A DNA stretch of 64,000 nt from Candidatus Nezhaarchaeota archaeon WYZ-LMO8 (GCA_004347965.1 QNVF01000001.1:43724-107723); one strand, 5' to 3'. Positions 27,163 to 57,190 are shown, counted from the stretch's first letter. The notes: a model not told the origin generated them from the letters alone. Program-made: numbers and translations.

Positions 27163-27419
27163 ACTAAAAATTATTGTCCTGTAGTTCACAACTCAAATCG
27201 AATGAGGTGCGTCTTTGGGGTTGTTCTATCTAACTAATAGTACCTAAAATAAAAAACGCTTGAATATGCAATACCATTATTCATTTAATAACTTAGTGGA
27301 GAATCCTCGTTTTGTCATCTAGCCTATACTCGAAAGTGTCAAAGTGATGTCATGATGAAGTCACGTATGTCGATCTAGACTTAAAATAGGAGGTATAAGA
27401 AGCTTGAACTCGAAGAGAC

Positions 27420-27509
27420 TGGAGCCCCGGGCGGGATTTGAACCCGCGACCCCTGCCTATTTGTCCAGAATACCAAGGCAGTGCTCTAACCAGACTGAGC
27501 TACCGGGGC
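27420..27509 (-). tRNA. tRNA-Thr(GGU) with a 12-nt anticodon-loop intron; CCA encoded
   Basis: GCCCCGG-UA-GCUC-AGUCUGGUUA-GAGC-A-CUGCC-UUGGUA-[UUCUGGACAAAU]-A-GGCAG-GGGUC-GCGGG-UUCAAAU-CCCGC-CCGGGGC-U-CCA. Confidence 0.9.
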
Positions 27510-31987: not shown

Positions 31988-32091
31988 TGGCGCCGGGAGC
32001 GGGATTCGAACCCGCGCGGCCCAGAGGGCCACAGGCTTAGTGGGGTATACATCCTCTCCAGGCCTGCCCCCTACCACTAGGGTATCCCGGC
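31988..32091 (-). tRNA. tRNA-Ser(GGA) with a long variable arm and an ~18-nt intron in the anticodon-loop region; CCA encoded
   Basis: GCCGGGA-UA-CCCU-AGUGGUA-GGGG-G-CAGGC-CUGGAGA-[~18 nt]-GCCUG-U-GGCCCUCUGGGCC-GC-GCGGG-UUCGAAU-CCCGC-UCCCGGC-G-CCA. The exact splice junction (37/38 to 39/40) is ambiguous by eye. Confidence 0.8.
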
Positions 32092-47627: not shown

Positions 47628-48929
47628 ATGAACTTCCTAGACCTTGATGAATTGAGTGAAGAAGATAGGTTGCTTAGAGAGGAGGTTCATAGATTCGCCG
47701 CCGAGGTTATACGCCCTGCATCAATAGAGCTCGACAGGATGCCTGCTACGGAGAGGATCAAACCAGACTCACCCTTTTTCAAAGTTATGAAAGAGATGAA
47801 GAAGCTCGGCTTCCATAAGATCATGCTTCCTCCAGATAAGGGGGGAATAAAGATGACCCCACTGCAAAGGTACATAGTCCTTGAGGAAATTGCTTGGGGT
47901 AGTGTTGGCTTCGCAACTGCACTAGGAGTAGACATTATTCCATTTTCATGTGCAACCCTTTTCGGCGGTAAAGAAGTATACGAAGAGCTTGTAGTTCCCT
48001 GGCTTGAGAGAGATGACTGGTACGGTTGTTGGGGAGTTACTGAGCCTCAGCATGGGAGCGACTACCTCATATTCCTTAGAGAGGAGAAGGAGCTTGTTGA
48101 GAAGATGGGGGCTGGCAATGTCATCGCTGAAAAGGATGGTGGTAAATGGGTCATAAGAGGGCAGAAGTCTGGATGGGTCTCTTCAGCACCAATTGCAACT
48201 CACTGCGGCCTTCATGCTCAGGTCAAGGGTGGAAGAACGCTTGCTGATGGGCTTTTCGCGATAGTTCCTCTAGACCTAGAAGGGGTTGAGAAGGGAAAAC
48301 CTGTAGAAATGCTTGGGATGCGCGATAATCCCCAAGGAGAGCTATTCTTCAATGACGTTAGAATCCCGGAACACTATGTGATCGTAGCCCCCGGACCCTT
48401 CTACGCAATATTCTGCGATCAGCTATTATGTCTCACAAGCTGTGGAATGGGAGCGTTTGCTGTTGGACTTGCAAGAGCTTGCTTTGAACTTGCACTCGAC
48501 TATGCGAAACAAAGAGTACAAGGGGGGGCTTCTCTCGTGAAGCATAAGAACATAAAGCTCAAGCTTTATGAAATGTTCGAGAAGATTGAGACAGCACGCT
48601 ACTACGTTAGGAAAGTCATGGAGTACACGTGTAGGAGAATACTTGAGCTTAGAACGAATGATGCATCTCCGAGGCATGCTAGGGCTGCACAAATTTACGC
48701 AAAGAAAATAGCATTCGAGGTTGCGAACAACGCCTTACAGATATTCGGCGCTTATGGATTAAGCAAGGACTTCATAATTGAGAAGTTCTTTAGAGACTCT
48801 AGAGCAATGCTAATAGAGGATGGGACAGTTGAAGTCTTAAGTTTAGATGCAAGCGACGACGTTATCGAAAACTATAATAAGGATTATTACGATGTGAGCT
48901 TCTTGAAGAAGTTCTATGAGGTGGTTTGA
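47628..48929 (+). CDS. Acyl-CoA dehydrogenase family protein
   Basis: ACAD N-terminal, middle (GCWGVTEPQHGSD) and C-terminal domains. About 430 aa. Confidence 0.85.
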   Translation: MNFLDLDELSEEDRLLREEVHRFAAEVIRPASIELDRMPATERIKPDSPFFKVMKEMKKLGFHKIMLPPDKGGIKMTPLQRYIVLEEIAWGSVGFATALGVDIIPFSCATLFGGKEVYEELVVPWLERDDWYGCWGVTEPQHGSDYLIFLREEKELVEKMGAGNVIAEKDGGKWVIRGQKSGWVSSAPIATHCGLHAQVKGGRTLADGLFAIVPLDLEGVEKGKPVEMLGMRDNPQGELFFNDVRIPEHYVIVAPGPFYAIFCDQLLCLTSCGMGAFAVGLARACFELALDYAKQRVQGGASLVKHKNIKLKLYEMFEKIETARYYVRKVMEYTCRRILELRTNDASPRHARAAQIYAKKIAFEVANNALQIFGAYGLSKDFIIEKFFRDSRAMLIEDGTVEVLSLDASDDVIENYNKDYYDVSFLKKFYEVV

Positions 48930-49663
48930 TGATAAGAGGAATACCATTTGATTCTCCTCTTTACGAAATCGATGAAGAGAGAGGGATCGAATATGTGAAC
49001 TGCAGGGCCATCACTACCTTCTTCACCATTAAGAGTGACGTCAGAGACTTAATTCCAGAAGGCTTAAAACCCCTAAACAGTGGTGGGATATGGATTGCTC
49101 ACTATGGCTTCAGTACACTTGGAACTTACAACGAGTACATTACGGCCATTCAAGTCGAGGATGAGGTTGGAGACATTGGATACTACATCCCGTACATCTA
49201 CGTAACGAATGATGCTGCCCTTGCAGCTGGAAGAGAAGTTGTTGGAGCACCTAAGAAGCTTGCTAAAATAGAGTTAGATCAATATCTTGACTTAATTCAG
49301 GGAATACTTGAGAGACCACACGGTAAGAGATTAGCAACGCTCACTATGAAGCCGAGCTATAGAGCTAAGGAGCTAATAGATCAAATACTCCCAAAGCCCA
49401 CATACTTGTACTCTGTAAGGCATCTTCCACCGTTGAAGGGTAAGGGAGGTGCTACGCAGTTAATAAAGTGGTATGCAGAAATAGACTTTCACGTCGATTC
49501 AAGAGGGGAGAGGATAATTTTTGTAGGACCGGCTAATGTGACCTATGACTCGCCATCATTAAATGATCCAGTGCATAAGGTGGAGATAGACAAAATCATC
49601 TTCGCAGCCTACTTCGAGTTCGACATGAGGCTCGGGTTCGTTGACATAGTTAAGAGTCTTTAA
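48926..49663 (+). CDS. Acetoacetate decarboxylase-like (ADC family) protein
   Basis: ADC-like beta-cone pattern (YEIDEERGIEYVNCRAITTFF ... AHYGFSTLGTYNEY). Start overlaps the acyl-CoA dehydrogenase stop (ATGA). Confidence 0.55.
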   Translation: MMIRGIPFDSPLYEIDEERGIEYVNCRAITTFFTIKSDVRDLIPEGLKPLNSGGIWIAHYGFSTLGTYNEYITAIQVEDEVGDIGYYIPYIYVTNDAALAAGREVVGAPKKLAKIELDQYLDLIQGILERPHGKRLATLTMKPSYRAKELIDQILPKPTYLYSVRHLPPLKGKGGATQLIKWYAEIDFHVDSRGERIIFVGPANVTYDSPSLNDPVHKVEIDKIIFAAYFEFDMRLGFVDIVKSL

Positions 49664-50171
49664 GCAACCATTAAAGGGCATTAACCGATGGATAAGCCTC
49701 ATCACTTCATCGATCGCTTAACTCGTATACAGAGTATGAGGGCATGACTGGGTAGGCAGTGCTGGCGTCTACTAATGTATTTATAGGCTTTGTCTAAAGC
49801 TTCGCTTAAACTCCTAGCAACTCAAACACCATTTTCTCCGGAACTCTAGGGTTTGAGAAAGCAACGAGCAACGTTTATGATCACCAGGCTTTGCTCCGAA
49901 GTTGGTCTTATAGCGTGTCAGAGGAAGAATGAATGAGCTCTATGATGAGCATAACCATACCTGTACTTCTTGACATATCCCTTACTTTTTGTGAACTTTC
50001 TCTCGTTCTCTCTAAAAGCCTGTAGAAAGCGAATTTTAGCGTAAAAGGATTAACAGATAACCTTTGGGCAAGCATATAGAGTAAGAACATAATCTCTCAG
50101 GATATTCAAAATTCTCTCTAAATTAATGTATGGTCGTTTAGGAAGATTTATATTTACAAAGAACATAACTA

Positions 50172-50549
50172 TTGCTGAATATCAGCGTTGAAGGTAATTG
50201 CATGAGGGCATCTGCGAAATCCAAGAAGATAAGTTATGGCTTAAGCGCGCTTTTCGTCATCATTACTTCTCTAGGCGTAGCTGCAATAGTTTATGGTGAA
50301 GGTCTCCTAGTATTCAACCCATTGAACCTAGTAGCATTTGTCATAGGCCCCTTTGGAGTCTACACCATCATCTACGCTTTAATATCACGAAGAGACCGTC
50401 TCTATTACCTTAGCTGGGGGTTGATAATGTCTATTACGGGTCTGTCCTTCGCCCTCTACGAGCTTGTGAACGTAATAGTACTGGTTGGCTTGCTTCTCAT
50501 CCTTCTTTCATCCTTAGGTTTACTTGAATATTGGAGGAGGAAGGAATGA
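50172..50549 (+). CDS. Small integral membrane protein (4 TM)
   Basis: 125-aa hydrophobic ORF. Its stop abuts the ATG of the next gene. Confidence 0.5.
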   Translation: MLNISVEGNCMRASAKSKKISYGLSALFVIITSLGVAAIVYGEGLLVFNPLNLVAFVIGPFGVYTIIYALISRRDRLYYLSWGLIMSITGLSFALYELVNVIVLVGLLLILLSSLGLLEYWRRKE

Positions 50550-51092
50550 ATGAACGAGAGGAGGAAACAGATACCAGAAAAGGTTCGTGAAGAGTTAGGG
50601 TTGTTGGAGAGAATAATTAGTTACGTCCCCGGTTACCGAGGATACAAGGAGAAAGAGCTGCGTAGAGAAAGTGATAGGCTTGTTAGGAGCGAGATTGCCA
50701 ACAAGCTTAGGGCGGCTAAAGACGCTATGAGGAGGAGCCTAGCTAACCCAATTATAATGCAGAAAATTTCTAGTGAAGACGCTTGGAGGATTAATACTCT
50801 CATGTCTCGCCTTGATAGGGTGATACAGCGTATAGATAGAGCCGCTGCTGGATACGCTGGCATGTTCGATGCAGTCAAGGTTAGGGAGAATATGCTCGAC
50901 AAGGTCATTCAACACGACTTGAGCTTGATAGAAAATGCTGAGGCAGTTAAGGCAAGCGTCGAATCCTTAGTTAAGGTGGAGCCTGGAAAAGAAGAGTGGA
51001 AGAGGCTCATGGACGATTTGATGCTTAAGATCGATGAACTGGATTCGCTAATTGATAGAAGGATTGAAATTCTTAGGGGGTTAGTTGACTAA
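50550..51092 (+). CDS. Coiled-coil protein of unknown function (possible PspA/ESCRT-III-like helical protein)
   Basis: 180 aa, almost entirely heptad-like helical and charged. Translationally coupled to the flanking genes (TGA-ATG on both sides). Confidence 0.45.
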   Translation: MNERRKQIPEKVREELGLLERIISYVPGYRGYKEKELRRESDRLVRSEIANKLRAAKDAMRRSLANPIIMQKISSEDAWRINTLMSRLDRVIQRIDRAAAGYAGMFDAVKVRENMLDKVIQHDLSLIENAEAVKASVESLVKVEPGKEEWKRLMDDLMLKIDELDSLIDRRIEILRGLVD

Positions 51093-52136
51093 ATGCCTAA
51101 AGTTATTGAATGGGTTGGTGCAAGGGAAGGCGACATAGTCTGGAGATACCCTAATGAGGAGATTGCTTGGGGAGATAACTTAATAGTTCACGAGTATGAG
51201 GCAGCCGTCTTCCTCAGGGACGGTAAAGCATACGACGTCTTTAGGGCTGGAAGGCACGTCCTGACAACAGCAAACTTACCGTTGCTCACAAAAATTTTGT
51301 CTCTTATAGCAGGATTTGACAAAGTTCCTTTCCGAGCAACGGTGATATTCGTTTCACTGAAGCAGTTCCAAGGGAGGTTCGGGGCTCAAGGCCAGACTAA
51401 AGAGCTTGCTCCTCTGAAGTTTTATGGTAGCTTCTGGTTTAGAATTGAGGATCCTAACCTCTTCGTGAACGAGGTAGTTGGCGGGCAGGAAATATATACT
51501 ACAAGTAGTCTCCAAGACTTTCTTAGAGGATACTTCAATGAGAGATTAATCGACGTATTGAGCCAGTACTCGTTAGCCGAGGTTTATGGGAAGCTTGACG
51601 AAACTAGCTTCTTGGCTAAAAACGTCCTATACGACGCCTTTAAGAGGATAGGACTAGAGCTAATCGATGTGAAGTTTGAAGGAATTGATACGACACCTGA
51701 GTGGAGAGACAGAATATTCTTCCTGAGAACAGGAGTTTCAGCAAACGAGGTTTTAAGGATGCAGACAGTTCAAAAGGCTGCTGAAAGCTTATCGAAGAGC
51801 CCTGGTGCAGCTGTGGGTGCAGGTGTAGTGATGATACCGCCATTATTCCAACCGCCACCAGCCCCAGCTACACAAGCACAACGATTTACATTATGTCCAA
51901 AATGTGGCTTCCAAAACCTGTCGACAGCAAGGTTCTGCAGCAATTGTGGTACATCTCTACAGGCAGCCACGACTACTCTAACATGCCTGAAATGCGGAAT
52001 GGCAAACCCAGCAGGAGCAAAATTCTGCATAAATTGCGGTTCACCAATACAACCATCAGTTAAATGCCCCAAGTGTGGAAGCGAAGTTCAGCTAGGAGCA
52101 AAGTTCTGCTCAAACTGTGGGGAAAAACTAACTTAA
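51093..52136 (+). CDS. SPFH/Band-7-like (Band_7_1/YdjI-type) domain protein fused to three C-terminal zinc ribbons
   Basis: N-terminal about 250 aa with an SPFH-like pattern (AAVFLRDGKAYDVFRAGRHVLTTANLP...). The C-terminus carries 3 C-x2-C-x10-11-C-x2-C repeats (CPKCGFQNLSTARFCSNCG, CLKCGMANPAGAKFCINCG, CPKCGSEVQLGAKFCSNCG). Confidence 0.6.
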   Translation: MPKVIEWVGAREGDIVWRYPNEEIAWGDNLIVHEYEAAVFLRDGKAYDVFRAGRHVLTTANLPLLTKILSLIAGFDKVPFRATVIFVSLKQFQGRFGAQGQTKELAPLKFYGSFWFRIEDPNLFVNEVVGGQEIYTTSSLQDFLRGYFNERLIDVLSQYSLAEVYGKLDETSFLAKNVLYDAFKRIGLELIDVKFEGIDTTPEWRDRIFFLRTGVSANEVLRMQTVQKAAESLSKSPGAAVGAGVVMIPPLFQPPPAPATQAQRFTLCPKCGFQNLSTARFCSNCGTSLQAATTTLTCLKCGMANPAGAKFCINCGSPIQPSVKCPKCGSEVQLGAKFCSNCGEKLT

Positions 52137-52232
52137 TATATCTAAAACATGATAACGAAGCTAACCCAGAGAATAACATGAGTGCTAGCACGATCTCACA
52201 TATTTCATCTTACAAAGTTTAGGGAAGACAGC

Positions 52233-52901
52233 CTAAATTGTTCTTCTAGCACCGCAATGAGGACATATGGTCTCTGTTTGTGGAAATAGTGTTCCACAGT
52301 ATTTGCATGGAACCATAACTACTTCACGGATAACCTCCCTCTCCTTTACAACTGGAGTGGTTACTGGCTGGGCAACTTGTATCTCAAGTGTCGGACTCAC
52401 AGCATCTGGCCTACCTTTAATTGCCACGACACCCTTAATCGTCCACGTAACCCTTCTATCTAATCCCTTCGAGGTTGGCTTCATGGTTACTGGAATTGGA
52501 ATACTGAAGGGAAAAGTGCTTGAAAAACCTTGTGAAATATGTATAGGCCCACTAAGACTTGGGTTCGCGGAGTATAGTGTGGTAGATTCCCAAACCTCCC
52601 TGAAAACCTCCCTCTTTAGGGCATGGTCATAGAACCGCTTTTGAACCTTAGCGGACTCAACACAACGTATCTCGCATCTAACGTCTTCTGCGTCAAAGTC
52701 TTCATAAGAAATTACAGTGAGCTCTCCTTTAATATCATCACCGAGATAAAAAACACTTCCACTAAGATTTAACTTTAAACTGACTTTTGGAGGTGTAACC
52801 TTCTCAGCCAGCTTCTTCAGAAACGACAATATCGATCCTCCAACATCCTCTACTGTAAAGAATTTAAACTTAAAATATTTTACGACTCGAAAAAGAGTCA
52901 A
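52233..52901 (-). CDS. Arrestin-like/Spo0M-like beta-sandwich protein with a C-terminal zinc ribbon
   Basis: N-terminal SLKLNLSGSVFYLGDDIKGELTVISYEDFDAEDVRCEIRCVE pattern resembles Spo0M/arrestin-N domains. C-terminal CKYCGTLFPQTETICPHCG ribbon. Confidence 0.45.
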   Translation of the reverse strand: MTLFRVVKYFKFKFFTVEDVGGSILSFLKKLAEKVTPPKVSLKLNLSGSVFYLGDDIKGELTVISYEDFDAEDVRCEIRCVESAKVQKRFYDHALKREVFREVWESTTLYSANPSLSGPIHISQGFSSTFPFSIPIPVTMKPTSKGLDRRVTWTIKGVVAIKGRPDAVSPTLEIQVAQPVTTPVVKEREVIREVVMVPCKYCGTLFPQTETICPHCGARRTI

Positions 52902-53017
52902 TAAACATCTCTCTTCTTAGATGCTTAATCTTCTGAGTAAACATAACGTTAACTTCATCTAAAACCATCTCTAAACTAAGTTATGGAATTTTCCCGCATA
53001 ACTTCATATGAAGGCAA

Positions 53018-53752
53018 TCATCTTGACGGTGGAGGTGAAGGTGATGGAGGTGATGGCGGAGGAGACCTTAACGATATGTAGAAGTATGTTGCTGAAGCCG
53101 TGAAGACGGCGTTCAGCAACCAGCTCACCAATGTCCCTACGTATGGTCCGACTATTGGAATCAATGAAAAACCATAGGAGAACGCCATGCCTATAACTAT
53201 CACGAGGACTATGAAGACTATGACTTCACTTAAATTTTTTGACACGAAAGTGAAGGCTCTCTTTATGCTTTCAATAACGTCGACGGTCTCAATTATGGCT
53301 ATAACAACTATGAATATAGCTATTGGAAGCAGTATCACCGTTATGCTTAGTAAAGCTGCAACTATAGCTGTAACAATTAATGTGCTAATTCTACTAACCA
53401 CGAAGTTTAAGCTCTTGCTAAGACTTATTGACTGGTTATTTAAGACGTCGTTAACCATATCTATAAGCATGCAGGCAGCTATGAAGCCCAAAATTGCAGC
53501 GATAAATGAGCCGAACATGAGTATAAGCGTATTCGGTTCTTCGATAAAGTAGTATCTTATGGGGAACAATTGAGCAAGCATGGAGAAAACCCATTGAACA
53601 ACGACTGGGGCAATGAAAGGAACTAGCAGTATCGGTCTCTTAATCGAAATATTTAAACCCTTAGAAATGGATTCTAATGATTTTGGCATGCTTCTTCTGT
53701 GATCTCCTAGCTTTATTAATTTTTTGCCATTTAAAAATAGGGCTTGGATCAA
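53018..53752 (-). CDS. Integral membrane protein with a Pro/Ser-rich C-terminal tail
   Basis: About 6 TM helices. The tail PPPSPPSPSPPPSR is encoded by GGTGRNG-type short repeats. Confidence 0.5.
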   Translation of the reverse strand: MIQALFLNGKKLIKLGDHRRSMPKSLESISKGLNISIKRPILLVPFIAPVVVQWVFSMLAQLFPIRYYFIEEPNTLILMFGSFIAAILGFIAACMLIDMVNDVLNNQSISLSKSLNFVVSRISTLIVTAIVAALLSITVILLPIAIFIVVIAIIETVDVIESIKRAFTFVSKNLSEVIVFIVLVIVIGMAFSYGFSLIPIVGPYVGTLVSWLLNAVFTASATYFYISLRSPPPSPPSPSPPPSR

Positions 53753-53930
53753 TCACATGTCCAAAAGCTCAAGGCTAATGTGTAGCTTGGTGATGAGAGT
53801 GAAAGATTGTAGGGTCTAATTAGATTATTGTGAGAAGTCGTCATAAAAGGAGCTCTTAATTTTGTGAAAAGCTTGAAGCTTGAGAAGAGGATTTTATGTA
53901 GTGATCGTAGCTAAGCCTTACTTCACGAAT

Positions 53931-54218
53931 TCACGAAGCTGATCCTCCCAGCATTAGCACTAAAGAGATCAATATTACAAGCATGACTAGAGCAGCTGTC
54001 ATTAATCCGCCATAATTCCTCCTCTTAGCCTCCTCCATAGCTATGAAGACGACGCTCGCGAGAGGTGTAAGCGCCAATACAAGCGTCGCGAAGAGCGCCG
54101 CTAAGTCCTTCAATAACCTATTCTCGAGGAGACTTAGCACGAAGCTTAAGGCGAAAGCAATTAAGCTGATCGCTAACCCTATGGTGAATAATTTCTTTAA
54201 TGCATTGTAAACCATCAA
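53931..54218 (-). CDS. Small membrane protein (3 TM)
   Basis: 95-aa hydrophobic ORF upstream of the TauE/SafE gene. No recognised family. Confidence 0.35.
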   Translation of the reverse strand: MMVYNALKKLFTIGLAISLIAFALSFVLSLLENRLLKDLAALFATLVLALTPLASVVFIAMEEAKRRNYGGLMTAALVMLVILISLVLMLGGSAS

Positions 54219-54229
54219 GCCAAATCCTC

Positions 54230-55114
54230 CTAGCCACTAAGGATTATTTGAACCCCCTTGCTCAGGGCTGTGTAGGCCAAGTAGATCAATAAGATGGCGA
54301 AGGCGAATAACAGCCTTGAGCTCCTAACCCTACCCATGATCCTTGAGCCTAGAGTGGAGCCGATCATCGTCCCTACAACCATTAACGGTAGGATCTCAAA
54401 GTTCAGTAGCCCAAAGGAGAGGTAAGCCATCACGCCTATCGAGCTTGTAAGCCCAATCATGAATGCGCTAGTGGCCATTGAGACCTTTATTGGTACCTTC
54501 ATGATCCTATTCATTATGGGAACCTTAATGGCACCTCCGCCAATACCAACAACACTTGACAAAGTGCCAGCTAATAGTACTGTAGCTAACCCCCAGTAGC
54601 TATTGGTTACTTGATACTCTATGGTTCTATGAAGGTTAAAGTCGTAGTAGTTAGAGGAGAGCTTTAAGGCTTTAGCTAAAAAGTCTTCATTACTCTGAGA
54701 TTTGCTCATGCTTACCATGTCATCCTCTGCTTGCACATTTTTCAGTTGAACTACGGCTATAGCTATCAATGTCAAGCCCAAGACTATGTGTAGCACACCT
54801 TGTGATGCAATAATCGCCAAGAAGGCCCCTAAAATAGCTCCTATAGTCGCGTTTGTCTCTAAGAATAGTGCTAAACGTAGGTTTACAAGCTTTTGTGCTA
54901 TGTAGCTTCGACTACTAGCAATACTAGTAGCTACGACGCACACAAGACTTGCTGCAACAGCTTCTTTAATTGGTATCCCTATGATTGTGGATAAAATAGG
55001 GACTATTATCGCTCCTCCACCAATACCAAACATAGCTCCTAAAAAGCCCGCAGAGAAAGTCGTTAAGAAGAGTGCTAAAGGTAATAAAGCTAAGATTAGA
55101 ATCACCTCACACAT
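54230..55114 (-). CDS. TauE/SafE (DUF81) family sulfite/anion exporter
   Basis: Two internal repeats, each with a GIGGGAIxVPIL motif. About 8 TM. Confidence 0.8.
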   Translation of the reverse strand: MCEVILILALLPLALFLTTFSAGFLGAMFGIGGGAIIVPILSTIIGIPIKEAVAASLVCVVATSIASSRSYIAQKLVNLRLALFLETNATIGAILGAFLAIIASQGVLHIVLGLTLIAIAVVQLKNVQAEDDMVSMSKSQSNEDFLAKALKLSSNYYDFNLHRTIEYQVTNSYWGLATVLLAGTLSSVVGIGGGAIKVPIMNRIMKVPIKVSMATSAFMIGLTSSIGVMAYLSFGLLNFEILPLMVVGTMIGSTLGSRIMGRVRSSRLLFAFAILLIYLAYTALSKGVQIILSG

Positions 55115-55298
55115 TAGTTGGAGGAGCTTAGCTCCTACCGATTAAGATTAAGCTTAAATTTTAAGTTTATGGCAAGCTCGACATAATTTTTTAAGCATCG
55201 CTGAGCAGCACAAAATACTTCACTGACAATCAGCGTTCAACTCAAAGTGTTAGGAAGTAAAGTTTAAACCTTAGATACTCAGACTAAGCAAGACGGTA

Positions 55299-56528
55299 AT
55301 GGTGGAGGTAAGTCTATCTAAGTGCCCTAAGAAGTACTTCGTGGGTACTCATCGAGCTCTTGAACCGGAAGATACCCTGAGGCTCATAGAGCCGAAGATC
55401 AAGACTATAGGTGTAACTCGAATCTCCGACATAACTGGATTGGATAGAGTAGGAATTCCGATATACTCGTGTGTAAGGCCGAGAGCGGCTGAAGGAGCTG
55501 TCTCTGTGTATTCAGGTAAGGGTATCACGGATACGTTAGCGAAGATCTCTGCGATTATGGAGGCAATTGAAAGGTACTCAGCTGAAGTGAGCCCTCAGGA
55601 CGAAAGTGTGATGGTAAAGGGATCGTACAGAGAACTGTCATCGAAATACTCTGTTTTAGACCCTACAACCCTAATACTCCCAAACTTATCGTCATACGAT
55701 AGATCCTCGATACTGAGGTGGATTAGGGGGCATGACCTAGTTCAAAGAGAAGATGTTTTAGTGCCAGTTAGCGCAGTCTTTCATCCTTATAGCCCTAAAG
55801 ATGATCTACACTTATTTAGAACCAGCACAAACGGTCTTGCATCGGGCAATACTATTGAAGAGGCAGTGCTTCACGGATTGATGGAGGTAATAGAGAGAGA
55901 TGCGTGGAGCATAGCTGAGCTGTCTAGAAATGGTGGCAAGATAATTGAGACCCCGATGAAGTACAAGCTGGTTCGAGAGTTAATGGAGAAGTTTGAGAAA
56001 GCATCAATCGAAGTATACCTACGAGATATAACGTCAGATATAGGGATACCGACCATTGCTGCTGTCTCAGATGATACTCTATTAAGGGATCCAGCCCTCC
56101 TAACAATAGGGTTCGGCACCCACTTAGACCCAGAGATAGCAGCTATAAGAGCACTACTTGAAGTTGCTCAAAGCAGGCTTGTTCAAATTCAAGGAGCAAG
56201 AGAGGATACTCATAGAGCTAGCCTAATGAGAATGATGGGTTACGATAGAATAAAGCGTATCAATAAACATTGGTTCTCCAAGTCTGATGAGATCGTGAAG
56301 TTGAGTGAATTACCCTACTTAGCTAAGGACGACATACTCGATGAAATATTGTTCGTTATAGATGTCTTGAGGAGAAGGGGCTTTGATAGGGTTGTAGTGG
56401 TTAATTTAACAAGACCTGAGGTTTCAATTCCGACGGTTAAGGTTGTGGTTCCAGGACTTGAAGTCTATGCTATAGATCAAGATAGGGTAGGTCCGAGGGG
56501 TAGAGCATGCTTGAGAAGCAGAAGATAG
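55299..56528 (+). CDS. ycaO: YcaO-domain protein (ATP-dependent peptide backbone-modifying enzyme; TfuA-associated type)
   Basis: YcaO ATP-binding region pattern and ~400 aa length. Immediately followed by tfuA with a 22-nt overlap. Confidence 0.8.
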   Translation: MVEVSLSKCPKKYFVGTHRALEPEDTLRLIEPKIKTIGVTRISDITGLDRVGIPIYSCVRPRAAEGAVSVYSGKGITDTLAKISAIMEAIERYSAEVSPQDESVMVKGSYRELSSKYSVLDPTTLILPNLSSYDRSSILRWIRGHDLVQREDVLVPVSAVFHPYSPKDDLHLFRTSTNGLASGNTIEEAVLHGLMEVIERDAWSIAELSRNGGKIIETPMKYKLVRELMEKFEKASIEVYLRDITSDIGIPTIAAVSDDTLLRDPALLTIGFGTHLDPEIAAIRALLEVAQSRLVQIQGAREDTHRASLMRMMGYDRIKRINKHWFSKSDEIVKLSELPYLAKDDILDEILFVIDVLRRRGFDRVVVVNLTRPEVSIPTVKVVVPGLEVYAIDQDRVGPRGRACLRSRR

Positions 56529-57190
56529 TGGTTTTTACGGGGCCTAGCTTAAGACATAAAGAAGCACGCATTATATTTGAGCATGCAATCTACATGCCTC
56601 CAATAAAGCGTGGAGATGCAACAAAAGCTTTTGAGAGCGGGGCCAAGATCATAGGCGTAATAGACGGAGTCTTTTTTCAAGACGTTGCCGTCTCACCCAA
56701 AGAACTGCTAAACCTCCTTGATAGGGGAGCGATAATAGTTGGAGGTGGAAGCATTGGAGCTCTTAGAGCCGCTGAATTAGACGAGTTTGGCATGATAGGT
56801 GTGGGTGAGGTATACCGTATGTACAAAAGGGGGGAAGTATTCTCTGATGACGAGGTCGCGTTAATATTTGACCCATACACCTTTGAGCCTCTATCGGAGC
56901 CATTGATCAACATACGCTACAACGTGAAGAGACTTGCAAATGATGGCCTCATAGATTACGTGATAGCAGAGAAGCTAATTCAAATAGCTAAAAGCCTCCA
57001 TTACTCTGAAAGAAGTTACGAGAAGGTTTTAGCAGAAGCTCTGAGACAAGGTATTTTGAGCCTCATGGAACATGATCGCCTAGTTCGCCTAATCCTAGAG
57101 CGAAGAATCGACTTAAAGAGACTTGACGCTATAGAAGTGCTAAAGAAAATAGCAGAACTAGCGTATGTTCACATAAAATCTCCACCTTAA
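56507..57190 (+). CDS. tfuA: TfuA-like protein
   Basis: N-terminal VVFTGPSL motif typical of TfuA. About 225 aa. Overlaps the ycaO stop. Confidence 0.75.
   Translation: MLEKQKIVVFTGPSLRHKEARIIFEHAIYMPPIKRGDATKAFESGAKIIGVIDGVFFQDVAVSPKELLNLLDRGAIIVGGGSIGALRAAELDEFGMIGVGEVYRMYKRGEVFSDDEVALIFDPYTFEPLSEPLINIRYNVKRLANDGLIDYVIAEKLIQIAKSLHYSERSYEKVLAEALRQGILSLMEHDRLVRLILERRIDLKRLDAIEVLKKIAELAYVHIKSPP

Follow-up and report, generated by a model that had tools for sequence, protein, structure and literature searches.

The window, which is the whole 64-kb stretch of DNA that we analyzed, carries three abutting genes on its + strand (g1, g2 and g3) and two genes on its - strand (g4 and g5) that converge on them. 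We performed an ORF check of the window and found all five ORFs at the coordinates given by the initial annotation, with the starts shifted for g1, g4 and g5. The features of the locus are listed below by coordinates and strand.

50148..50162, + strand: candidate archaeal operon promoter, TATA-box-like TTTATATTTACAAAG, about 40 nt 5' of the g1 ATG, as read from the sequence
50202..50549, + strand: g1, 115-aa membrane protein with about four TM segments (ORF; gene-caller start)
50550..51092, + strand: g2, 180-aa soluble all-helical protein of an unnamed family (ORF; family searches)
51093..52136, + strand: g3, 347-aa YdjI-type SPFH protein with three zinc ribbons (PF13421, PF01145)
51138..51716, + strand: SPFH (Band_7_1) domain of g3, aa 16-208 (Pfam)
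51786..51851, + strand: Gly-rich hydrophobic stretch of g3, about aa 232-253, SPGAAVGAGVVMIPPLF (invariant alignment columns)
51894..52118, + strand: three tandem C4 zinc ribbons of g3 (regular expression on the translation; PF13240, PF12773)
52233..52829, - strand: g4, 198-aa protein with predicted arrestin N-lobe and a zinc ribbon (Arrestin_N; AF2; Foldseek)
53018..53689, - strand: g5, polytopic membrane protein of 223-244 aa (ORF; hydrophobic segments)

The initial annotation had described three coupled genes with stop and start abutting at 50549/50550 and 51092/51093, and both junctions are exact: g1 ends in TGA at 50547-50549 and g2 starts with ATG at 50550, while g2 ends in TAA at 51090-51092 and g3 starts with ATG at 51093. 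A Shine-Dalgarno-like GGAGG/GGGGG run is found 5' of each junction. We compared the neighborhood in 80 species-level archaeal genomes (Bathyarchaeia, Nitrososphaeria, Caldarchaeales-type and Nezhaarchaeota). g3 lies 3' of g2, in the same orientation, in 78 of them and g1 lies directly 5' of g2 in 76, an arrangement far beyond chance, although the 80 loci represent related lineages, so that common descent, and not independent selection, accounts for part of this synteny. Where both g1 and g2 were called (65 loci), the two genes overlap by 4 nt (ATGA) in 50. The true unit, directly observed in these junctions and in their conservation, is therefore the three-gene operon g1-g2-g3 at 50202-52136 on the + strand. 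The genes flanking g1-g5 in the window are metabolic according to Pfam and include ACAD, ADC, TauE and YcaO, none of which is co-conserved with the triad in the 80 loci.

The same comparison, which the initial annotation had proposed, did not extend the unit to g4 and g5, and its grouping of all five genes as one module did not hold. g4 adjoins the triad in 19 of the 80 g2-centred loci, in three arrangements, and in 9 of the 19 g4-centred loci with 2.5 kb or more on either side; most g4 homologues under 60% identity lie away from the triad, and near the very divergent triad of locus L180 there is a 37%-identical arrestin-like gene that has no ribbon. Found beside the triad in about one quarter to one half of the loci, and in varied arrangements, g4 is an optional accessory. 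As the initial annotation had it, g4 is Spo0M/arrestin-like, which its fold confirms, and ends in a zinc ribbon. g4 matches Arrestin_N PF00339 (E 9.7e-7, 29.3 bits, cutoff 24.9), and its AF2 model (pLDDT 90.5) retrieves the ARRDC3 N-lobe in Foldseek (E 2e-10, TM 0.73 on the target), along with the TXNIP N-domain, Spo0M of B. subtilis (E 3e-8) and Vps26. The protein consists of a single beta-sandwich (aa 1-155; aa 16-153 in the AF2 model), a linker and a C-terminal zinc ribbon (aa 199-216 of the 222-aa ORF). The Foldseek alignments cover just the N-lobe of two-lobe targets, and the model has one beta-sandwich and not the two lobes (N + C) of the arrestin architecture. Judged by its predicted structure, g4 is thus a genuine single-lobe arrestin-N fold with a zinc ribbon. 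It shares the beta-sandwich with the alpha-arrestin N-lobe, Spo0M and Vps26, and it differs from alpha-arrestins in having one lobe (about 155 aa) rather than two, a C-terminal zinc ribbon, and an archaeal-only family (about 117 clusters, typically 196-198 aa). No PPxY-type motif was found in g4 and no ubiquitin machinery nearby. We place its start at TTG 52829, giving 198 aa, because homologues have 196-198 aa and a GGAGG lies 8 nt upstream.

g5 has 4-5 hydrophobic segments and the Pro/Ser-rich C-terminal tail SPPPSPPSPSPPPSR, as the initial annotation had it, and gave no Pfam, NCBIfam or PADLOC match. Its start is probably ATG 53689 (223 aa). It was present in 5 of the 80 g2-centred loci and in 2 of 80 g4-centred loci. 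In close relatives it goes along with g4, probably as a bystander.

The third gene had been correctly assigned as an SPFH protein of the YdjI type bearing three zinc ribbons. The suggested comparison of g3 with PF13421 (Band_7_1) gave E 1.6e-27 and 97 bits over profile positions 1-198 of 211, that is, above the gathering score (24 bits) over most of the domain, and PF01145 matched with E 2.6e-19 (envelopes aa 16-203 and aa 31-208, respectively). The SPFH domain is followed by a short helical region, the Gly-rich hydrophobic stretch, a Pro-rich linker and the ribbons, whose CxxC...CxxC patterns occupy aa 268-285, 298-315 and 325-342 and are matched by PF13240 in three stretches and by PF12773 in two. 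g3 is soluble: it has no TM segment, and no hydrophobic segment reaches threshold. YdjI itself is soluble, has no TM anchor and carries zinc ribbon(s) at its C-terminus after a low-complexity linker (PMC8581546, PMC11237479), and g3 fits this description with its Gly/Pro-rich low-complexity linker and C-terminal ribbons. G238, G242 and G244 are invariant in an alignment of archaeal and bacterial partners, and the Gly-rich stretch is a candidate membrane-contact or oligomerisation element. The g3 proteins of Bathyarchaeia, Nitrososphaeria and Nezhaarchaeota are 70-89% identical. When the PDB was searched with a g3 profile, only weak matches came back, to stomatin (2e-3), HflK/C and prohibitin, and therefore no Band_7_1-type structure has been solved.

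For g1 the gene callers choose ATG 50202, the more likely start, which gives 115 aa. A hydrophobicity scan found segments at aa 12-30, 43-61 and 88-106, and a weaker fourth near aa 67-86 was judged by eye; the loops between these roughly four helices are very short. No significant Pfam or NCBIfam match was found for g1. It was undetected in 4 of the 80 loci. A g1 profile located the Thermofilum homologue (E 2e-8) relocated 3' of the SPFH gene, and the same approach did not find g1 at L180, where the downstream position is held by a 119-aa 4-TM protein of no detectable g1 homology. We propose that g1 may serve as a membrane anchor.

The second gene, g2, belongs to a large family of uniform length. 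A word-indexed search gave 1475 matches, and an exhaustive search (E<=1e-3) gave 1253 clusters at 50% identity. Two motifs are invariant: aa 27-46 read PGYxGYxxKExRRxxDxxxR and aa 101-107 read GYxGxFD. The AF2 model (pLDDT 76, pTM 0.71) consists of an N-terminal helix, possibly amphipathic, a conserved loop of low confidence and four helices, each some 30 residues long. In this monomer model the two motifs, the most conserved of the protein, map to loops of low pLDDT, as one would expect of segments that bind a partner. g2 is soluble, having no TM segment, and Foldseek returned nothing at E<0.05, only generic helical bundles, so that the predicted fold is itself a generic helical bundle that offers no functional clue. 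Pfam gave no match for g2 and no recurrent family among 62 diverse members. The sole library match was NCBIfam NF047596 (LIMLP_15305_fam; E 4.7e-15), which covers the full length (g2 aa 11-174, model positions 10-172 of 175) at 55.9 bits, far under the equivalog cutoff of 210 bits. By this profile comparison g2 is homologous to NF047596 and yet outside the curated equivalog. Since NF047596 describes a Leptospira hypothetical protein, Leptospira has a g2 homologue; the NF047596 family has no assigned function, and the only paper we found mentioning the locus tag LIMLP_15305 does so as the neighbour of a small RNA (PMC7567364). Tblastn found no match to g2 in 72,556 plasmids or in 50,697 phage records, and PADLOC-DB gave no match for any of the five proteins at E<=0.1, and this speaks for a housekeeping role on the chromosome.

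What accompanies g2 throughout is the SPFH domain. All 9 divergent members of the g2 family for which genomic context was available lie beside a Band_7_1 SPFH gene, a pairing that is directly observed. The domain was conserved in 11 of 11 diverse aligned partners, and the C-terminal module of the partner differs among homologues (three zinc ribbons, two, HTH_17, GYF_2 or none). Because the pairing holds whatever this module is, the constant partner of g2 is the SPFH domain. The pair is also found in Anaerolineae and other bacteria, and hence, contrary to the initial proposal, the system is not specifically archaeal. A membrane protein is always close to the pair: g1 in archaea and, in three bacterial lineages, a conserved protein of about 175 aa with 2TM, winged-helix and zinc-ribbon regions. 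Relatives of the triad may further have a 250-aa protein (zinc ribbon and globular part) 5' of g1 (about 33 loci) or a 410-aa paralogue of it between g2 and g3 (17 loci). Some of these proteins have a C-terminal TM segment, and Pfam and NCBIfam recognise only the zinc ribbon in them.

A close counterpart of this operon among known systems is the membrane-stress module PspA-YdjG-YdjH-YdjI (renamed SamGHI) of B. subtilis, to which the initial annotation had likened the locus. Both have a soluble PF13421-type SPFH protein with low-complexity linker and C-terminal ribbon(s), and in both the SPFH gene shares an operon with genes of small membrane proteins. In Bacillus the membrane proteins of the operon are required to bring the soluble SPFH protein to the membrane (PMC8581546; bioRxiv 10.64898/2026.02.06.704340). 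Two bacterial loci strengthen the link. One operon (L089) reads g2-like::DUF4178 - PspA_IM30 - Band_7_1 with zinc ribbon, PspA being a separate gene beside the g2-like gene, and at another locus (L181) the g2-SPFH pair is inside a DUF4178/DUF350/spermine-synthase operon, a type described for PspA (PMC11237479). YdjG-type proteins combine N-terminal zinc ribbons, an NTF2-like/YpeB-related domain and a TM segment (PMC11237479), and the layout of the 250- and 410-aa proteins recalls them, as compared by description only. The likeness stops there, and the analogy is partial. Pfam found no PspA_IM30 match in g1-g5 and no TPM-domain (YdjH-like) match in g1, g2, g4 and g5, g1 being a bare 4-TM protein; PspA was absent from 160 archaeal loci (tblastn, +/-6 kb) and from the six-frame translation of the window (phmmer, PspA query). 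The window has no YdjG-like gene, g3 has three ribbons instead of one, and the constant partner of the triad is the g2 family, of which we found no mention in papers on the Bacillus PspA-YdjGHI operon.

We lean, with modest confidence, towards reading g1-g2-g3 as an operon for a YdjI/SamI-type SPFH scaffold beneath the membrane, in which g1 would be the anchor, g2 an adaptor or regulator of the SPFH protein, and g3 the scaffold. Binding partners, oligomerisation and physiological role of the triad are here inferred from the analogy with B. subtilis YdjG/H-YdjI-PspA. As a soluble scaffold, g3 would be unable to reach the membrane alone, and the tiny 4-TM protein g1 would provide the anchor. The invariant and probably flexible PGYxGY...RR..D segment of g2 may be a docking motif, by which g2 would bridge g1 and g3 or control how the SPFH domain oligomerises. 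Once assembled, the complex might organise or stabilise a patch of the cytoplasmic membrane and so function in membrane homeostasis or stress, while the C-terminal module of g3, which varies among homologues and in the window consists of three zinc ribbons, would recruit further factors, with g4 as a candidate client adaptor in some lineages.

Alternatively, g2 may itself be the effector, a non-homologous functional analogue of PspA that is recruited by the SPFH protein to stressed membrane and coats or seals the bilayer with its N-terminal helix and bundle. YdjI in B. subtilis recruits a helical effector to the membrane (PMC8581546), the archaeal loci have no PspA nearby, and the pair at L181 fills the slot of the CesT/Tir-PspA dyad in the operons of PMC11237479. 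Like PspA, Vipp1 and ESCRT-III (about 180-230 aa), g2 is all-helical, with that possibly amphipathic first helix, and is genomically linked to a YdjI-type SPFH gene. However, the L089 operon contains a bona fide PspA as well as a g2-like gene, so g2 is no mere substitute for PspA, and the four g2 helices of similar length, about 30 residues each, predict a compact bundle and not the long hairpin of an ESCRT-III polymer. No similarity of g2 to PspA/ESCRT-III was found in sequence, profile or fold, and we consider this explanation unlikely.

Another reading would make the operon a regulator of proteolysis or quality control in the manner of HflK/C-FtsH or stomatin-NfeD, with g1 and g2 linking the scaffold to a membrane protease encoded elsewhere and g4 delivering substrates. 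In stomatin-NfeD, flotillin-YqiJ/YuaF and HflK-HflC an SPFH gene adjoins a dedicated partner gene, and the g3 gene does likewise. Among solved structures, stomatin, HflC/K and prohibitin come closest to the g3 SPFH domain in profile comparison, arrestin-fold proteins of eukaryotes are substrate adaptors in membrane-protein turnover, and at L180 rhomboid and M48 peptidase genes are found about 3-4 kb upstream of the triad. That neighborhood was seen only once, however, and Pfam found no NfeD, second SPFH paralogue or FtsH-type protease among ten genes from 47628 to 56528, the operon included, nor do any of these, or any protease, recur as neighbours in the 80 loci. In contrast to the cage-forming SPFH proteins, g3 has neither TM segment or hairpin nor a long coiled-coil stalk, and g2 is predicted to be a soluble helical bundle rather than an NfeD OB-fold/protease or a second SPFH protein. 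We give this reading little credence.

The initial reading of a five-gene archaeal membrane-remodelling module, in which g2 is a PspA/Vipp1/ESCRT-III-like coiled-coil protein, had tied its case to a structural similarity of g2 to PspA/ESCRT-III and to conserved co-occurrence of the genes; the latter is strong for the triad, and the former was not found. Four independent tests speak against the relationship: neither g2 nor 62 members of its family have a Pfam match to these proteins, hhalign against PspA gave a probability of 0.3%, a profile search of the PDB returned none of PspA, Vipp1 or ESCRT-III, and the best ESCRT-III match in Foldseek was CdvB2 at rank 27 (E 0.41, TM 0.19). The YdjI type of the SPFH protein, the arrestin fold of g4 and its 19 adjacent loci agree with such a module, but the rarity of g5, the dispersal of more distant g4 homologues and the bacterial g2-SPFH pairs leave it very improbable. 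It is scarcely credible that the genes serve in anti-virus defence or belong to some other mobile accessory system: operons rich in zinc ribbons that encode uncharacterised proteins are common in defence islands and a TIR_2 gene lies about 3 kb downstream at L180, but g3 is highly identical across archaeal classes and operon order is fixed in 265 species-level genomes, where defence genes are fast-evolving and patchy, the flanking genes are metabolic, and neither PADLOC models nor the plasmid and phage collections gave a match.

The YdjI-type SPFH membrane-stress scaffold is known, and the new element is the unnamed g2 family as its partner. Since this family adjoins this very type of SPFH protein, g2 may be a missing partner of a known membrane-stress scaffold.

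Three forward-strand genes, g1, g2 and g3, make up a triad that recurs across archaea, and two reverse-strand genes, g4 and g5, lie beyond it. All five open reading frames of the initial annotation are present in the sequence. Gene callers and homologue lengths suggest corrected start sites for g1, g4 and g5, which are used in the following list (window positions).

50202-50549 (+): g1, 4-TM protein, 115 aa, start at ATG 50202
50550-51092 (+): g2, 180-aa protein
51093-52136 (+): g3, SPFH protein with three zinc ribbons
52233-52829 (-): g4, arrestin-like protein with a zinc ribbon, 198 aa, start at TTG 52829 with GGAGG 8 nt upstream
53018-53689 (-): g5, polytopic membrane protein with a SPPPSPPSPSPPPSR tail, 223 aa, start at ATG 53689

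The TGA of g1 (50547-50549) abuts the ATG of g2 at 50550 and the TAA of g2 (51090-51092) abuts the ATG of g3 at 51093, as had been annotated, and a purine-rich Shine-Dalgarno-like run precedes both the g2 and the g3 start. The TATA-like TTTATATT about 40 nt 5' of the g1 ATG is a candidate promoter; a scan for sigma-70 promoters and terminators is uninformative for an archaeon. g2 and g3 share a reading frame with a lone TAA codon between them (51090-51095), and nothing points to read-through.

A g2 relative is encoded in 265 genomes of a scan that used one genome per GTDB species. From these we retrieved 80 loci, mostly of Bathyarchaeia and also of Nitrososphaeria/Caldarchaeales-type archaea and Nezhaarchaeota, and counted co-occurrence by tblastn of the window's proteins against them. 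The initial annotation had joined all five genes into one archaeal membrane module resembling PspA-YdjG-YdjH-YdjI, and by gene-neighbourhood conservation the triad alone forms a unit: g2 is directly followed by g3 on the same strand in 78 of the 80 loci and directly preceded by g1 in 76. Of the 65 loci with both g1 and g2 called, 50 have the two genes overlapping by 4 nt (ATGA); from g2 to g3 there are usually 0-66 nt. Across archaeal classes g3 is unusually conserved (70-89% identity), followed by g2 (58-79%) and g1 (34-74%); the last contains about four hydrophobic helices and matches no family in Pfam or NCBIfam. The window's locus is also present on hot-spring metagenome contigs. g4 is nearby in 19 of the 80 loci and g5 in five. 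The latter has no family match and follows g4 in close relatives only; on co-occurrence it was rejected as a part of the module, and it is most likely a bystander. A 5.6-kb contig labelled Candidatus Acidoferrum sp. (DASPTR010000006.1, locus L080) carries an archaeal-type g1-g2-g3 operon 58-67% identical to that of the window, and its place in an acidobacterial MAG is probably due to a binning error rather than horizontal transfer.

The g2 family is large and lies outside Pfam coverage. A word-indexed search found 1475 relatives. When 1.84 billion cluster representatives were searched exhaustively, 1253 clusters matched at E<=1e-3 and 564 at E<=1e-10, which puts the family at about 1250 clusters (50% identity). 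The 150 best matches listed are mostly 165-180 aa long. The family signature consists of PGYxGYxxKExRRxxDxxxR near the N-terminus and A..GYsGfFDavkv.E..Ld..y.fD in mid-protein. In the AF2 model (pLDDT 76, pTM 0.71) an N-terminal helix is followed by four helices of about 30 residues, with the first motif in a low-confidence loop and the second in another low-confidence stretch. The sole library match is full-length and sub-threshold, to NCBIfam NF047596 (LIMLP_15305 family, hypothetical proteins of Leptospira); the Leptospira paper naming LIMLP_15305 gives neither a function nor a product name for its neighbours. Rare members are fused to an N-terminal double zinc ribbon (P0217) or a C-terminal DUF4178 (P0213), and another representative, P0255, has a Gly/Ser/Thr-rich tail of about 260 aa.

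For the 180-aa protein a comparison with PspA/Vipp1/ESCRT-III had been suggested, and four tests speak against a relationship. Foldseek against the PDB returned nothing below E 0.05 and generic helical bundles only, with the best ESCRT-III match, CdvB2, at rank 27 (E 0.41, TM 0.19). hhalign of the family profile against bona fide PspA gave a probability of 0.3%, the profile search of PDB sequences gave coiled-coil noise only, and in Pfam g2 itself had no match and 62 diverse members shared no recurrent family. Since none of the four revealed a relationship, we conclude that g2 is not a PspA/ESCRT-III homologue. A LemA-like identity, prompted by DUF2207 upstream in two Anaerolineae-type loci, was likewise rejected, as LemA was neither among the Pfam families listed for the 62 members nor in the top 50 Foldseek matches.

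Beyond the main archaeal set, a PF13421 gene (Band_7_1, the YdjI-type SPFH subfamily) adjoins the g2-family gene in 9 of 9 divergent members on contigs with context. The partners at these homologous loci are as follows.

L087, L097: SPFH partner carries HTH_17
L098: SPFH partner carries GYF_2
L093/L094 (Anaerolineae): SPFH partner without an extra domain
L095 (Thermofilum), L180, L181, L182: SPFH partner carries zinc ribbons
L089: 174-aa membrane protein, g2-like::DUF4178 fusion, PspA_IM30, Band_7_1 with zinc ribbon, in this order

g2 is kept whatever C-terminal module the partner has, so its constant relationship is to the SPFH domain. In three bacterial lineages g2 is preceded by the gene of a conserved protein of about 175 aa, which combines two TM segments with a winged-helix-like region and ends in a zinc ribbon, and in Thermofilum a g1 homologue is found 3' of the SPFH gene (profile E 2e-8). 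In the bacterial locus L181 (110-6767) the g2-SPFH pair stands at the end of an operon that also encodes ZnR-DUF4178 (687 aa), DUF350, a spermine-synthase-domain protein (522 aa) and a zinc-ribbon protein (184 aa). The ZnR-DUF4178/DUF350/spermine-synthase operon class carries a CesT/Tir-PspA dyad or a band-7 protein (PMC11237479), and the L181 layout links the g2-SPFH pair to such polyamine-type envelope-stress operons. At L180 (89-2515, 9334-9834), M48 peptidase, rhomboid and arrestin-like genes lie on one side of a very divergent triad and a TIR_2 gene on the other, an arrangement seen once.

The identification of g3 as a YdjI-type SPFH protein with three zinc ribbons holds (PF13421 E 1.6e-27; C4 ribbons at aa 268-285, 298-315 and 325-342). 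YdjI-type SPFH proteins are soluble, and g3 has no hydrophobic anchor. When eleven diverse SPFH partners are aligned, the SPFH domain is conserved and is followed by a Gly-rich hydrophobic stretch with invariant G238, G242 and G244, then by a linker rich in Pro and Ala, and last by the C-terminal module that varies. The PDB copy searched contains no Band_7_1-type structure, and the solved structures closest to g3 in a profile search are those of stomatin (E 2e-3), HflC/K and prohibitin.

In B. subtilis the SPFH protein YdjI is soluble and depends on YdjG and YdjH, membrane proteins of its operon, to reach the membrane, after which it recruits PspA (PMC8581546). In a later preprint the operon is called samGHI and presented as a complex that senses membrane stress (bioRxiv 10.64898/2026.02.06.704340). 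Conservation, pairing, solubility and domain identities are results of the present analysis. From the analogy with B. subtilis and the anatomy of the proteins we infer contacts between them, their oligomeric state and a physiological role: g1 would be the membrane anchor, g2 would bridge or regulate, g3 would oligomerise beneath the membrane, and the g3 ribbons and g4 would be recruitment modules. The main rival to a bridging or regulating g2 is that g2 itself is the membrane-acting effector. Protease-regulator and defence readings of the operon find little support. The defence reading was rejected, as none of the five proteins matched PADLOC defence models and g2 had no match in plasmid and phage collections.

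The arrestin-like fold assigned to g4 is agreed upon by Foldseek and by an Arrestin_N match above the gathering score, with the correction that only one lobe is present. In the confident AF2 model (pLDDT 90.5) a single beta-sandwich is joined by a linker to a small zinc ribbon, the only one of the protein, at the C-terminal end. Foldseek matches the model to the ARRDC3 N-lobe (an alpha-arrestin; E 2e-10), the N-domain of TXNIP, Spo0M of B. subtilis (3e-8) and Vps26. The small family of about 117 clusters is confined to archaea, and its members are typically 196-198 aa long. Next to the triad g4 occurs in three arrangements: it is convergent and downstream, divergent and upstream, or co-directional. 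In the reverse test on 80 g4-centred metagenome loci, 19 had at least 2.5 kb on each side, and the triad was present in 9 of these, mostly with close homologues of g4 (at least 64% identity) and two at 52-53%. The arrestin-like gene of L180 is 37% identical to g4, has no ribbon and lies 2.5 kb from the triad. We read g4 as an optional accessory of the triad.

Many relatives of the operon contain one or two extra zinc-ribbon genes. In about 33 loci neighbour clustering found, 5' of g1, a protein of 250 aa that combines an N-terminal zinc ribbon with a globular domain, and in 17 loci a 410-aa paralogue inserted between g2 and g3. The globular domain ends in a ...DGxTGxV(I)xG motif, and some versions have a C-terminal TM segment. 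Examples are L015 (4820-5527 and 6525-7769), L024 (4829-5581) and L057 (3520-5420). In layout these proteins recall B. subtilis YdjG, as compared with its published description only (PMC11237479); the window lacks such a gene, a search for it having given only zinc-ribbon noise.

The flanking genes of the window (acyl-CoA dehydrogenase, acetoacetate-decarboxylase-family, TauE and YcaO) were absent from all 80 loci by tblastn. The acyl-CoA dehydrogenase (433 aa) and acetoacetate-decarboxylase-family protein (245 aa) genes, directly 5' of the operon (47628-49663, +), overlap by 4 nt (48926-48929), and this pair is co-conserved with the operon in 0 of 80 loci. The genes of a TauE/SafE-family exporter (294 aa) and, 11 nt further on, of a 95-aa membrane protein that weakly matches DUF1634 (53931-55114, -) probably form a transporter unit of their own, with no relation to the SPFH operon. 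At 55299-57190 (+) there is a 22-nt overlap between a YcaO gene (409 aa, PF02624 E 2.7e-98) and a 227-aa ORF, which is TfuA (PF07812) in the NCBI annotation. YcaO-TfuA is a thioamidation pair known from methanogens, and its presence is notable for a Nezhaarchaeales genome. Rfam finds a 101-nt tRNA at 31991-32091 (-) missed by ARAGORN, and the two programs place tRNA-Leu(CAA) (-) 34 nt apart (27389-27475 versus 27423-27509); both discrepancies suggest intron-containing archaeal tRNAs.

The SPFH component and the general logic are already known. What is new is the large unnamed partner family g2, the strict association of its genes with Band_7_1 genes in archaea and bacteria alike, and the form that the operon takes in archaea, where it has a 4-TM anchor and an accessory of arrestin fold; no description of the family or operon was found in the literature searched, whose journal coverage is partial, so an earlier description is possible. 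We consider it improbable, on a far wider reading, that g2 is a universal, unrecognised core subunit of Band_7_1 SPFH assemblies in archaea and bacteria, that a minimal machine of anchor, g2 and soluble SPFH protein is older than the archaeal/bacterial split, and that g4 selects membrane cargo in TACK-related archaea. If true, the links that eukaryotes have among arrestin-fold adaptors, SPFH microdomains and ESCRT-type membrane remodelling would have a forerunner in this prokaryotic system.

To our knowledge, targeting and assembly partners of YdjI-type SPFH proteins are known for one Bacillus operon only. The g2 family, whose members sometimes co-occur with PspA or polyamine/DUF4178 stress operons, is a new and concrete component that researchers on SPFH and Psp proteins can examine, and Leptospira, for which genetic tools exist and which has a g2 homologue, is a possible test organism. 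We know of no experimental membrane-stress biology in Bathyarchaeia, Nitrososphaeria or Nezhaarchaeota, and for archaeal cell biologists the operon offers a conserved membrane scaffold in these three groups. The recurrent, optional arrestin-fold neighbour g4 is a lead on the deep history of arrestin-type adaptors.
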